Sequence record: OZ335960.1
Strand: one strand, 5' to 3'
Origin: a phage
Length of the DNA: 64,000 bases
Shown: one piece after another, positions 8,826-29,156 of the stretch
How the letters are laid out: every line of letters begins with the position of its first letter
Numbering within the stretch: the stretch's first letter is position 1
Made by a program: the position numbers and the translations under genes
Notes under the pieces: model-generated
What the model saw: the letters and a program-made list of their open reading frames with translations, nothing else
What the model was told of the DNA's origin: nothing
Database searches by the model: none

Positions 8826-9322
8826 AAAGTTTTAATAACCTCTATAATATCGTCTTGAGAAAGACCGTTAATTAAAATATGATGTTCAGCAGGAGATTTA
8901 GAAATTTTAAAGCATGCCTCAACATCTTCTGCCATATCCGATGCGCTGCGATTTGGATTACTAATTCCAAGACGATGTTTTCCCGTTAAAGGATTAACGA
9001 TGATATAGCATTTACAGTTGTTGATATGAACATTAGGTTGAGTCTGATTAATGAACACATCACAATCATATTTCGCAAGCTGATTTTCTAAAAAGACTTT
9101 CATCTCCTCAACCGCATCAGGAAGCATATCACGGGCTTGCTCAAGACGACGATTTCGATATTCTTTAATGGTCGTTTTCCGCTTGACTTGCTTAGCTAAA
9201 TCTTTCTTAAGATCGGTGATATATCCAACTCGACGATTTCCTTTAAATACAGAAATCCCATCTGTAGTATCACCGTATGCTTCAACGACCATCTCAGTAG
9301 TAATAAGCTGTAAATCCATCAT
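8816..9322 (-). CDS. alc: Alc-like host-transcription inhibitor (positional assignment)
   Basis: 168 aa ORF in the position between the pseT cluster and rnlA where T4 encodes the 167-aa Alc; assigned by length and position only. Confidence 0.5.
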   Translation of the reverse strand: MMDLQLITTEMVVEAYGDTTDGISVFKGNRRVGYITDLKKDLAKQVKRKTTIKEYRNRRLEQARDMLPDAVEEMKVFLENQLAKYDCDVFINQTQPNVHINNCKCYIIVNPLTGKHRLGISNPNRSASDMAEDVEACFKISKSPAEHHILINGLSQDDIIEVIKTLCN

Positions 9323-9383
9323 AAAGTCCTCATGTTATGTCAGTAAGACTACTATAACACAACACGAGGGACTTGTAAACAGC

Positions 9384-10971
<1,588 letters not shown>

Positions 10972-10979
10972 AATAAAAT

Positions 10980-10993
10980 GGGCCTTACGGCCC
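10980..10993 (-). promoter_or_regulatory. GNRA-loop hairpin between a Shine-Dalgarno sequence and the denA start codon (split RBS)
   Basis: Minus strand reads TAA-GGAG-TG-GGGCC-GUAA-GGCCC-AUUUUAUU-AUG; the hairpin would bring AAGGAG to about 9 nt from the AUG. Confidence 0.45.
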
Positions 10994-10998
10994 ACTCC

Positions 10999-12168
10999 TT
11001 AAAAATATTTTTTAAAACTCATCATAACTTTATCATCAACATCATTATCAATCTGTGCTACAAGGTAAGATGAAAGTTCTACTTCTTGTGGCGCGGATTG
11101 AACATTATCAGAATTAAGATATTCACGAATCCAAGGATACGGATGTTTAACCGGAGCATCAGTAATTGGGCATGGAAGACCACACTGTTTCATACGAGAT
11201 ACAGTTAAGTAATCAATAAAGCTCCACATGCTATTTGTATTTAATCCAGGAACATCACCATCTTTAAATAAATGAACTGCCCAGTCTTTTTCTTGGCGGT
11301 TAACTTCCATGAAAATATCAACTGCTTCTTGTTCACACTCTTGGGCGATTTTAACCCATTCATCACCATCAGTGCCAAGTTGAAGTTGACGAATAATATA
11401 TTGGGTGCCTTTAAGGTGAAGCTGCTCATCACGTGCAATGAACTTCATAATCTTGGCATTACCTTCCATGATTTCCATGTTTTTATGGAAGTTAAAGGTA
11501 CACGCGAAAGATACATAAAAACGAATAGCTTCCAATGCGTTGATTACATGAAGGCAAAGATAAAGAGATTTCATTAGTGCTCGTTTAGTACATTCAACAA
11601 CTTTGCCTAACTCTTCTTTGCGAAATCCTTCTGATAAAATTCCTTCATAATCTTCAACCGCATTCTGATATTCACGAGTCTTAACTAGAACATCATCGTA
11701 ATAGCGACCAATAGATTCAGCACGTTTCATAATAGCTTTATCTAATACAATCTCATCAAACACTTTTGACGGATCAGTATAAAGATTTCGCATAATATGA
11801 GTGTATGAACGGCTGTGAATAGTTTCACTAAAAGTCCATGTAGCAACCCATGTATCAAGACTTGGGTCTGAAATTAACGACATAAGTACAGCAGACGGTG
11901 CACGACCCTGAATGCTATCTAGAAGTGATTGATACTTCAGGTTATTAGTAAAAATATCTTGCTGATACTGAGGAAGCTTGTTAAATTGTGCAGCATCCAT
12001 CATCAAGTTTACTTCTTCAGGACGCCAGAAAAATGACAATTGCTTTTCGGTTAAATCTTCAAAAACTTTATGACGTTGAATATCATAACGCGCAATACCA
12101 AGACCTGAACCGAAGAACATAGGTTCTTTTAAAACATCAACTGGATTTGTATTAAAAACTGTGCTCAT
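10999..12168 (-). CDS. nrdB: ribonucleotide reductase beta subunit, uninterrupted (no intron)
   Basis: 389 aa continuous ORF; di-iron/tyrosyl-radical R2 fold motifs; no group I intron as in T4 nrdB. Confidence 0.9.
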   Translation of the reverse strand: MSTVFNTNPVDVLKEPMFFGSGLGIARYDIQRHKVFEDLTEKQLSFFWRPEEVNLMMDAAQFNKLPQYQQDIFTNNLKYQSLLDSIQGRAPSAVLMSLISDPSLDTWVATWTFSETIHSRSYTHIMRNLYTDPSKVFDEIVLDKAIMKRAESIGRYYDDVLVKTREYQNAVEDYEGILSEGFRKEELGKVVECTKRALMKSLYLCLHVINALEAIRFYVSFACTFNFHKNMEIMEGNAKIMKFIARDEQLHLKGTQYIIRQLQLGTDGDEWVKIAQECEQEAVDIFMEVNRQEKDWAVHLFKDGDVPGLNTNSMWSFIDYLTVSRMKQCGLPCPITDAPVKHPYPWIREYLNSDNVQSAPQEVELSSYLVAQIDNDVDDKVMMSFKKYF

Positions 12169-12219
12169 AAATTTTCCGCTTAGTTAATAGATAGTGACTC
12201 GTCCGTGAGTCAAATTATA

Positions 12220-14484
12220 TCATAATTTACAGGATGAACAATCTTCAGCTTTTGGAGTTTCTATTTCATAATCATCAGTACCAGAACCGTCACGGGTATT
12301 ATGATAATAGAAATTTTTTCCGCCAAAATACCAAAAATACAAAAGGTCATCAATCATTATTGACATTGGAACCTTTCCTTTTGGAAAAATCTGCGGGTCA
12401 TAATATGTATTCGCTGAAGCTGATTGACACACCCATTTCAGCATAATAGCTACTTGCGTAAGATAAGGTTTATTGCCTTTCTTAGCTAATTTCCATGTAT
12501 AATCATAGAGGTCTATGTTGTGCTCAATATTGGGCACGACTTGATTAAAGGAGCCCTCTTTTGATTCTTTAACAGAGACTGGTCCACGTGGAGGCTCGAT
12601 ACCGTTTGTACTGTTAGAAACTTGGGAAGATGACTCACATGGCATAAGTGCTGATAATGTGCTATTACGGATGCCAAAGAGCTTAAGGTCTTCCCGCAGC
12701 GACGACCAGTCACAAACGTATTTTGGAGCTGCGATTTGGTCAATCTTTTTATTGTACCAGTCGATAGGTAATTCGCCTCGAGACCAACGAGTGTCTGAAT
12801 AATATTCGCAAGGTCCTTTTTCTTTGGCGAGCTTAATGGATGCTTTAATGAGTCCATACTGTAATCTCTCAAATAGTTCATGTGTTAAATCGTTAGCATC
12901 TTCATAAGAAGCAAAATTACTTGCTAGCCAAGCTGCATAGTTAGTAACACCTACGCCAAGGTTTCGACGTTTTTTAGCTTTTTCTGCTTCAGGAACTGGA
13001 TATCCTTGGTAATCCAAAAGATTATCAAGAGCACGAACTTGGACTTCTGCCAATTCATTAATTTTATCTTGGTCTTGCCAATCGAAGTTATCTAACACAA
13101 ATGCAGATAACGTACACAATCCAATTTCAGCATCAGGACTATTCACATCATTTGTTGGAATAGCAATTTCACAACACAAGTTGCTCTGACGAATAGGTGC
13201 CTTTTCACGAATAAATGGCGTATAGTTATTCGTATTATCAATGAACTGCACATAAATCCTTGCTGTTCCTGAGCGTTCAGTCATGAGCAATTCAAACAGT
13301 TCACGGGCTTTAATACGCTTTTTACGAATATTAGGGTCTTTTTCTGCAGCTTCGTATAATTCACGGAAACGGTCTTGGTCTTTAAAATAAGAATAATAAA
13401 GTTCGCCACCCATTTCATGCGGACTGAACAAAGTAATGTAATCATTCTTTCCGAATCGTTCCATCATTAGGTCATTCAGTTGAACGCCATAATCCATATG
13501 ACGGATACGGTTTTCTTCTACACCTTTGTTATTTTTCAAAACGAGAAGATTTTCAACTTCCAAATGCCAAATAGGATAATAAGCAGTAGCAGCGCCGCCA
13601 CGAATTCCACCCTGTGAACATGATTTAACTGCAGTCTGAAAATGTTTCCAAAAAGGAATAACACCAGTATGACGCACTTCACCCATTCCAATCTTAGAAC
13701 CTTCGGCACGAATCATACCAACGTTAATACCAATTCCAGCGCGTTTGGAGATATATTCAACAATTGAAGCAGAAGCCTTATTGATAGACTTTAATGAATC
13801 ACCTGCCTCAATAACAACGCATGAACTAAACTGCCGAGTTGGAGTACGGCAACCAGCCATAATAGGGGTTGGCAGTGAAATCTGTCGAGTAGATACTGCT
13901 TCATAAAAACGAATAACATGTTTTAATCTATCAACAGGTTCATCTTGATGCAATGCCATTCCAATAGTCATAAATGCAAACTGTGGAGTTTCATAAATTT
14001 GACCAGTGGTTTTATCTTTAACTAGATATTTTTCTTTTAATTGCATCGCCCCGGAATAAGTAAATTCCATATCCCGCTCGTGCTTAATTTTTGATTCTAA
14101 AAATGTAATTTCTTCTGCTGAATATTTTGACAACAATTCAGGGTCGTATTTACCTTCATTTACACAGTAAGAAATATGGTCAATAAATGAACGGGGCTCA
14201 TACTGCCCGTAAACATGCTTACGAAGAGCGAACATTAAACACCGTGCAGCTACATATTGATAATCAGGCTCTTCAACTGAAATAGAATTCGCAGCAGCCT
14301 TAATGACAATAGTCTGAATGTCATCAGTTGTCATTCCATCACGGAGATATGATTTAATATTTTCATATAATTCATAAGGATCTACAGATGTTCCTTCAGC
14401 TGCCCAAGATAAAACTTTAATAATTTTTTGCGGGTCAAAGCTCTGAGAAACACCACTACTTTTGATAACATTAATTAATTGCAT
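12220..14484 (-). CDS. nrdA: ribonucleotide reductase alpha subunit
   Basis: 754 aa; ATP-cone N-terminus, catalytic cysteines, C-terminal CxxC tail. Confidence 0.95.
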   Translation of the reverse strand: MQLINVIKSSGVSQSFDPQKIIKVLSWAAEGTSVDPYELYENIKSYLRDGMTTDDIQTIVIKAAANSISVEEPDYQYVAARCLMFALRKHVYGQYEPRSFIDHISYCVNEGKYDPELLSKYSAEEITFLESKIKHERDMEFTYSGAMQLKEKYLVKDKTTGQIYETPQFAFMTIGMALHQDEPVDRLKHVIRFYEAVSTRQISLPTPIMAGCRTPTRQFSSCVVIEAGDSLKSINKASASIVEYISKRAGIGINVGMIRAEGSKIGMGEVRHTGVIPFWKHFQTAVKSCSQGGIRGGAATAYYPIWHLEVENLLVLKNNKGVEENRIRHMDYGVQLNDLMMERFGKNDYITLFSPHEMGGELYYSYFKDQDRFRELYEAAEKDPNIRKKRIKARELFELLMTERSGTARIYVQFIDNTNNYTPFIREKAPIRQSNLCCEIAIPTNDVNSPDAEIGLCTLSAFVLDNFDWQDQDKINELAEVQVRALDNLLDYQGYPVPEAEKAKKRRNLGVGVTNYAAWLASNFASYEDANDLTHELFERLQYGLIKASIKLAKEKGPCEYYSDTRWSRGELPIDWYNKKIDQIAAPKYVCDWSSLREDLKLFGIRNSTLSALMPCESSSQVSNSTNGIEPPRGPVSVKESKEGSFNQVVPNIEHNIDLYDYTWKLAKKGNKPYLTQVAIMLKWVCQSASANTYYDPQIFPKGKVPMSIMIDDLLYFWYFGGKNFYYHNTRDGSGTDDYEIETPKAEDCSSCKL

Positions 14485-14801
14485 AAGTCCTCAACTTGAA
14501 AATCGTCTTTAAACAATCGGTTAACTATATGAGCTATTATATCACCATGACACGGCTTTGGTTTACATGTGCATCCTAGCCTCATTCCACGTAAAGGCTC
14601 TAAATGTGCTTTAGTTATTTCTCCGGATTTAATTCGACGTATAAAATCTTTTTTGAATAATTCAATGGCAGCCTCCCGGCTGCCAGCATCTTTACCGACG
14701 TAATTTCCCCAAAATGTACCACGGTGAATATTAACATCAAAGTCGGATTTATATTTATTCACTACCTGGCATAGACGGCCCGCGCGGTGATAATTCGTCA
14801 T
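14475..14801 (-). CDS. hypothetical protein (nrdA.1 position) with C-x-C ... PCHGD motif
   Basis: ORF track 108 aa. Confidence 0.5.
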
Positions 14802-29125: not shown

Positions 29126-29156
29126 TAAGAGGGGCTTCGGTCCCTTGGAGGTTTAT

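Follow-up and report, generated by a model that had tools for sequence, protein, structure and literature searches.

The 64,000-nucleotide (nt) stretch of phage DNA analysed here (sequence record OZ335960.1; hereafter the window, in whose coordinates all positions are given) belongs to a Tequatrovirus, i.e. a T4/T2-like phage. Among the about 1,000 related phage records that match it, Escherichia phage UGKSEcP1 is the best, at 99.2% identity. On the minus strand, the gene of the ribonucleotide reductase beta subunit, nrdB (10999..12168; 389 amino acids, intronless, found in the list of open reading frames (ORFs) and named nrdB in the annotation of matching phage records), is followed by denA (10561..10971; an ORF of 136 amino acids with its AUG at 10971-10969), which codes for the GIY-YIG endonuclease II (EndoII). 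The nrdB–denA junction, read on the minus strand throughout, carries a stable hairpin between a Shine-Dalgarno (SD) motif and the denA start codon. Comparison of this junction across T4-like phages argues, with moderate confidence, that it is a split (non-contiguous) ribosome-binding site (RBS) of the T4 gene 38 type.

The nrdB stop codon UAA (11001-10999) runs directly into GGAG (10998-10995), the proposed denA SD. Together they make up UAAGGAG (10995..11001), a 7-nt complement of the 16S rRNA 3′ end with a predicted anti-SD duplex energy of -7.8 kcal/mol. A single U (10994) separates GGAG from the 5′ strand of the stem, GGGCC (10993-10989), which is followed by the GNRA tetraloop GUAA (10988-10985), the 3′ strand GGCCC (10984-10980) and AUUUUAUU (10979-10972), which fills the space between GGCCC and the AUG. 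With a U-A pair added to the five G-C pairs, the hairpin UGGGCC-GUAA-GGCCCA has a 6-base-pair (bp) stem (10979..10994; 5′ arm 10994-10989, 3′ arm 10984-10979) and a predicted energy of -11.6 kcal/mol. The tail UUUUAUU (10972..10978) is then the spacer between the hairpin and the AUG; it is free of SD sequences (anti-SD duplex +2.8 kcal/mol) and doubles as a terminator-like U-tract. An earlier sequence-only reading of this junction had placed a hairpin with a GNRA loop between the SD and the denA start, which the minus-strand sequence and its fold confirm, except that the string given there, GGAG-UG-GGGCC, holds one surplus G and should read GGAG-U-GGGCC.

In linear form, the end of GGAG lies 23 nt from the denA AUG, which is too distant for an SD if ~15 nt is taken as the limit. 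Looping out of the hairpin shortens this spacing to 9 nt (5-bp stem, 14 nt), exactly as the sequence-only reading had it, or to 7 nt (6-bp stem, 16 nt), and both values are within the 5–11 nt range of known split RBSs. The gap between the nrdB UAA and the AUG is 27 nt, and the overlap of stop and start codons that marks translational coupling is absent here. The further claim that GGAG is the only SD-like element stands for the tail, which contains none, but not for the hairpin itself, where a second string, G-UAAGG-CCC, spans the loop and the 3′ arm. The GG of this UAAGG is paired within the stem, and the string is not present in relatives with UUCG loops.

The conservation of the junction was assessed in 15 annotated phage records and 36 IMG/VR contigs, which yielded 28 distinct sequences; the counts below use the 22 non-redundant nrdB–denA hairpin junctions among them. 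The hairpin is kept in these 22 distinct junctions from more than ten genera of T4-like phages (Tequatro-, Mosig-, Dhaka-, Karam-, Jiaoda-, Gelderland-, Gapriver- and Kanagawavirus, Muldoonvirus of Serratia, Gualtarvirus of Morganella, a Proteus phage group and others). The common design consists of the stop codon, an unpaired AAGG, GGA(N) or GGAG 0–2 nt later, the hairpin, a pyrimidine-rich tail and the AUG. The GC stems are 4–7 bp long, with sequences that vary by genus (GGGCC, GGGAC, GGGGC, GGGAGAC, CAGGGC, TAGGGC, GAGGGC and others), and the hairpins range from 12 to 18 nt; the tails nevertheless stay at 6–10 nt. On the mRNA-sense strand, 17 of the 22 loops are UUCG, two are GNRA and the other three are UUAG, UUUG and CUUGA. 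The GNRA loops belong to Tequatrovirus (GUAA in the window phage and UGKSEcP1, GCAA in T4 and G4500), where the GG after GUAA or GCAA completes a cryptic (U)AAGG that is paired within the hairpin. As the extra-stable UUCG and GNRA loops occur on the mRNA-sense strand only, the selected object is the RNA.

The stem covaries. In a MAFFT alignment of the junctions that came out loop-anchored, 94.6% of the cells are paired, and in four of the six pairs both partners have changed (22 cells). The observed values were never reached in 500 shuffles, and sliding of the 3′ partner lowered pairing to 22–69%. RNAalifold independently predicted the same helix, and no other, for the 22 junctions. A chance hairpin is ruled out by the covariation together with the shuffle and slide controls.

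The SD-like sequence is upstream of the hairpin in these phages and is missing downstream of it. An AAGG, GGA or GGAG follows the stop codon in 21 of the 22 variants and is weak in Muldoon; the anti-SD duplex of the flank between stop and stem is predicted at -3.1 to -7.8 kcal/mol, and at -1.7 kcal/mol in Muldoon. None of the 22 tails contains an SD (-0.1 to +4.3 kcal/mol, with at most one G). The stop codon is 24–32 nt from the AUG. An alternative SD nearer the AUG was considered and rejected: it is found in 0/22 tails, and the loop UAAGG is paired and non-conserved. The Serratia phage Muldoon combines the weakest upstream SD (UAAGAG) with the absence of a U-tract (tail AUAAAGCU) and is the most informative natural outlier; its record puts the denA RBS at a GGG that straddles the end of the loop (one base) and the beginning of the 3′ arm (two bases). 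In Krischvirus, a different gene is upstream of denA, and between the hairpin there (GGGCGGGA-GAAA-UCCCGCC) and the start lies a 24-nt tail that has an SD of its own, GAGGAAAGG. A long tail with a normal SD in one case versus a short tail with an upstream SD in the other fits the logic of a split RBS.

The same contrast is seen within the window, which contains many intercistronic tetraloop hairpins, including at least ten C(UUCG)G elements. Six of its hairpins are adjacent to a gene start: five on the minus strand (1536-1517, 18301-18284, 35459-35444, 38097-38086 and 38329-38312) and one on the plus strand at the gene 37-38 junction (29126-29156). In all six, a canonical GAGGA, AAGGA or GGAGG is positioned between the hairpin and the AUG in a tail of 12–20 nt; several have a UAA stop within the stem. 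Among the start-adjacent hairpins of the window, the SD precedes the hairpin at denA only. Likewise, when the 64-kb window was scanned on both strands for an SD-like motif, a stable GC hairpin, an SD-free tail of 4–11 nt and the ATG of an ORF of at least 50 amino acids, the split arrangement was found at denA alone. A census of SD-less genes (16/104) was unreliable and is not used as evidence: it relied on first-ATG starts, and its -18..-4 search interval caught the paired UAAGG of denA. The gene 37-38 junction of the window phage reads UAAUAA-GA-GGGGC-UUCG-GUCCC-UU-GGAGG-UUUAU-AUG and precedes a T2-type gp38 adhesin. Because gene 38 of the window is of this type and has a canonical GGAGG, the comparison below uses the sites of genes 38 and 25 in T4, taken from NC_000866. 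The same junction is a split RBS in T4 and has the hairpin-then-SD order in the window phage; thus, both architectures occur there.

The denA start is taken here to be the ATG at 10971, whereas the T4 RefSeq entry (NC_000866.4, 137517..137951) gives denA a length of 435 nt and begins it with the GTG inside GGAGTG (window 10995). Were this correct, the hairpin would be coding sequence, and in the window the 27-nt spacer is indeed in frame and free of stops. However, the distance between stop and AUG varies among the 22 variants (24, 26, 27, 28 and 32 nt), so the reading frame is not kept, and an upstream in-frame start exists in just 4 of the 22. No SD is found upstream of the GUG, and most records annotate the ATG. 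The crystallised EndoII construct (PDB 2WSH) begins with MKEIATEY after its tag, and the M-K-(E/D)-I-A N-terminus, unlike the upstream GUG, is kept across genera. Frame loss, the 2WSH N-terminus and the non-conserved GUG rule out the GUG start, to which we assign next to no probability, and the comparative data support the ATG. Public annotations of denA disagree in other phages, too: Dhakavirus VR5 and Bp7 use the ATG inside GGAATG, denA is cut short in the entries of PEi20 and MP1, and Pet-CM3-4 and Q7622 leave denA unannotated.

The hairpin and the UUUUAUU that follows it can also be scored as a terminator, a reading which the sequence-only account had not weighed. The terminator scan of the window missed this hairpin because G-T pairing lets the maximal stem swallow the T-run, and a separate index of the d'Aubenton-Carafa type was therefore computed (formula after d'Aubenton-Carafa et al. 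1990; the index is a relative measure only). It is +24.7 for the denA hairpin in both the window phage and T4, and 25–43 for stand-alone terminator-like hairpins of the window. Four of the latter on the minus strand (2416-2397, 54453-54432, 63197-63180 and 33490-33469) are GC tetraloop hairpins followed by 5–6 U with no adjoining gene start; by index and tail, they look like intrinsic terminators of early transcription units. The hairpin at 33490-33469 folds on the plus strand too. Across the 22 variants, the index is positive in 12 and negative in 10 (e.g. Mosigvirus -43, Q7622 -30, Muldoon -24, PEi20 -23), and the hairpin is kept regardless. By this comparison, the conserved set consists of the SD, the hairpin, the short SD-free tail and the AUG, and not of the hairpin and a U-tract.

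The anatomy of the junction, its conservation and covariation, the lack of any other SD and the near-identity of its design with the gene 38 site point to the following mechanism. UAAGGAG, fused to the nrdB stop codon, would be the denA SD, which in linear form is too far from the AUG. The tetraloop hairpin, fast-folding and very stable, would loop out 14–16 nt, so that on the 30S subunit the SD/anti-SD helix would be ~7–9 nt from the AUG, within the working range. The 30S subunits could arrive de novo or straight from ribosomes ending nrdB, whose stop adjoins the SD. We infer that folding enhances denA translation and that transcription terminates at the hairpin: on the nascent RNA of the window phage and T4, the hairpin with its UUUUAUU is probably a partial intrinsic terminator or a stabiliser of the nrdB mRNA 3′ end, and partial termination would keep the denA message low. 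The hairpin of the window phage would then probably serve both as part of a split RBS and as a terminator or stabiliser. Such an arrangement suggests how a host-DNA-degrading nuclease stays at a controlled level.

Several observations weigh against the split RBS. The helix in isolation may extend over GGAG and UUUU via G-U pairs (10 pairs, -16.4 kcal/mol, z = -3.95, 0/200 shuffles), and this extension would partly mask the SD in the model, as the helix predicted for T4 gene 38 likewise covers the last two SD nucleotides. Conservation of the flank could be partly incidental, since a UAA stop followed by a G-rich hairpin arm yields UAAGG strings without SD function elsewhere in the window (hairpins 1536 and 38329). 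In the literature searched, no paper that mentions or tests the denA initiation region was found, and an earlier notice of it is possible; nor did the search turn up any mapping of transcript 3′ ends at this junction. The hairpin and U-rich tail of the window phage make a respectable terminator by the index, and the G4500, SP1 and MP1 records annotate the denA hairpin as a rho-independent terminator. In Pseudomonas phage PspYZU05, nrdB and denA overlap (TAATG), and in Aeromonas phages denA overlaps nrdA.1 (ATGA); both junctions are hairpin-free, and coupling alone can evidently suffice for denA in such distant phages. The last two of these considerations lead to explanations of their own. If the hairpin were chiefly a terminator, an attenuator or a stabiliser of the nrdB 3′ end, GGAG would be incidental and EndoII would come from rare read-through and SD-independent initiation (S1, U-rich leader). 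This would agree with the index, which is like that of the stand-alone hairpins, with the terminator annotations and with the mobE hairpin, which has a similar short U-tract and terminates 30–50% of transcripts (PMC2790892); furthermore, only denA would be attenuated, as rnlA downstream may own a MotA-type promoter (a candidate described below). It leaves unexplained why an unpaired GGA(N) is conserved ahead of the stem and why the tails of all variants lack an SD, when 6/6 window comparators have one in the tail. Moreover, the 10 variants with a negative index still have the hairpin, preceded by an SD-like flank and followed by a short tail without an SD. The stop codon is 2–6 nt from the stem, so ribosomes terminating on nrdB would be expected to hinder folding. 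On balance, a hairpin with only these functions is unlikely.

The second explanation is strict coupling, in which denA is translated only by nrdB-terminating ribosomes that re-initiate 27 nt further on while the hairpin blocks independent entry of 30S subunits. An SD 0–2 nt from the stop in all variants agrees with it, and the overlaps in PspYZU05 and the Aeromonas phages suggest that coupling is ancestral. On the other hand, T4 gene 38, which shares this architecture, is a case in which it reportedly enhances initiation (PMC3014915), and a 27-nt gap with a stable hairpin is long for SD-less re-initiation. Coupling is also compatible with a split RBS, since re-initiating subunits would still use the split SD. 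We regard the strict form as distinctly doubtful. As the distant phages show, denA is often translationally coupled, and ribosomes re-initiating after nrdB may be the main users of the site. A role of the GGGC...GCCC palindrome at the level of DNA, in recombination or module shuffling, would have a parallel in the PeSL cassette stem-loops, as GGGG...CCCC stem-loops in T4-type intergenic regions are linked to recombination (PMC2839356). We consider it very improbable: the extra-stable UUCG and GNRA loops are on the mRNA-sense strand only (19 of the 22 variants), no promoter module is associated with the palindrome, and its position between the same two core genes is constant across genera. The split RBS may finally be part of a device with two levels, a proposal that is rather unlikely in full. 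In it, a ribosome on the nrdB stop, 4–5 nt upstream, would keep the partial terminator from forming and thereby license denA transcription; the hairpin of the read-through message would bridge the SD and the AUG; and, in phages that have GGAG, RegB, which cuts GGAG within early-gene SDs (PMC3014915), would later silence denA by cleaving its GGAG. EndoII dosage would then be set jointly by nrdB translation, RNA folding and RegB.

Searches around the junction returned little else. Between nrdB and denA there is no late (TATAAATA), MotA-box or early-type promoter match (simple patterns, 9300-14700, minus strand), and a generic sigma-70 scan showed no enrichment over shuffles. No Rfam 15 family matched at its gathering score; SNORD60 and L20_leader appeared below threshold only, the L20_leader match (window 10964-11090, minus strand), which covers the nrdB 3′ end and the hairpin, with 25.3 bits against the 58.7 required (E = 0.0098), most likely by chance. 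Upstream, the nrdA–nrdB spacer (12169-12219, minus strand) is without mobE or an nrdB intron, as in T2-like phages. Its 6-bp hairpin, TGACTC-ACGGAC-GAGTCA, was picked up as terminator-like by the scan though the tail is only weakly U-rich; phages without mobE are described as having no nrdA–nrdB terminator (PMC2790892). Downstream, the denA–rnlA spacer (10560-10508, minus strand) contains TGCTTCC-13 nt-TACTAT, which resembles a MotA box with a -10 element and is a candidate middle promoter of rnlA. A small hairpin, CCACA-TGGAG-TGTGG, overlaps this candidate, and rnlA has a canonical SD, AAGAGGA, after it. If this promoter is real, rnlA would be independent of read-through past the nrdB–denA hairpin.

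The closest known counterpart of the denA junction is T4 gene 38, whose junction with gene 37 in NC_000866 reads gcaUAA-GGAG-A-GGGGC-UUCG-GCCCUU-CUAAAU-AUG. The likeness to T4 split RBSs noted in the sequence-only reading is supported, as the order of parts at denA (23 nt reduced to 7–9 nt) equals that at the gene 37-38 junction: a UAA that runs straight into GGAG, one further nucleotide, a tetraloop hairpin rich in GC, a short tail without an SD and the AUG. The gene 38 junction is identical to the Karamvirus denA junction at 24 of 32 positions (hand count). The linear spacing is 22 nt at gene 38 and 23 nt at denA, and the folded spacing is ~5 nt versus 7–9 nt. The sites differ in the gene pair, in expression (late for gene 38, early for denA), in the loop (UUCG versus a GNRA loop, GUAA in the window and GCAA in T4) and in the tail, which is CUAAAU at gene 38 (terminator index -24.8) and U-rich and terminator-like at denA (+24.7). 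The gene 38 split RBS, credited to Gold 1988 in PMC3014915 and PMC7297116, is backed by mutations, whereas that of denA is proposed here from sequence comparison; hairpin-destabilising mutations lower initiation at T4 split RBSs (PMC3014915, PMC7297116). At the sequence level, denA has every feature of the gene 38 type.

The literature searched names just genes 38 and 25 as split RBSs in T4, with spacings that change from 22 to 5 nt and from 27 to 11 nt, respectively (PMC3014915). If the present assignment is true, denA would be the third, and in an early gene. The gene 25 site, located where genes 26 and 25 meet (Nivinskas 1999; Malys and Nivinskas 2009, via PMC3014915), resembles denA in that a hairpin shortens the spacing of a distant SD and that conservation in relatives served as evidence (PMC3014915). 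Unlike the denA hairpin, that of gene 25 is AU-rich and weak (z = -0.29) and forms within the coding sequence of gene 26, the two genes overlapping at UAAUG. Moreover, reports of the gene 25 site are confined to close T-even phages, while the denA element is found in many genera. This far broader phylogenetic conservation and the clean covariation make denA a good system in which to study how a hairpin that separates SD and AUG is accommodated on the 30S subunit.

Other known hairpins share some of these features. T4-type terminators (mobE, PMC2790892) and PeSL stem-loops (PMC2839356) resemble denA in their GC stem with a tetraloop and in the short U-tract. Unlike them, the denA hairpin is positioned between the only SD and the AUG, 7–8 nt from the start, and the U-tract is not conserved in relatives. 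The hairpins of these relatives are of the classic C(UUCG)G type, an intercistronic class first recognised in T4 mRNA in 1988 (PMC4371310), but the SD precedes the hairpin at denA and follows it in the six window comparators. In E. coli thrS, the 30S subunit tolerates an RBS interrupted by a stable hairpin (Sacerdot 1998, cited in PMC7297116). There, the SD is normally spaced, and the hairpin, which is the operator for a protein, parts it from a single-stranded enhancer further upstream. At denA, by contrast, the hairpin parts SD and AUG, and there is no hint of a protein ligand. The comparison also sets several database annotations right, as existing records call the hairpin a terminator, put the RBS in the stem or, T4 RefSeq among them, start denA at a non-conserved upstream GTG or ATG. 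The kind of mechanism is already known, and denA is a well-supported additional example and not a new type of element. As such, it will hardly surprise a T4 specialist, yet it is an unusually conserved and covarying one, with a probable dual role.

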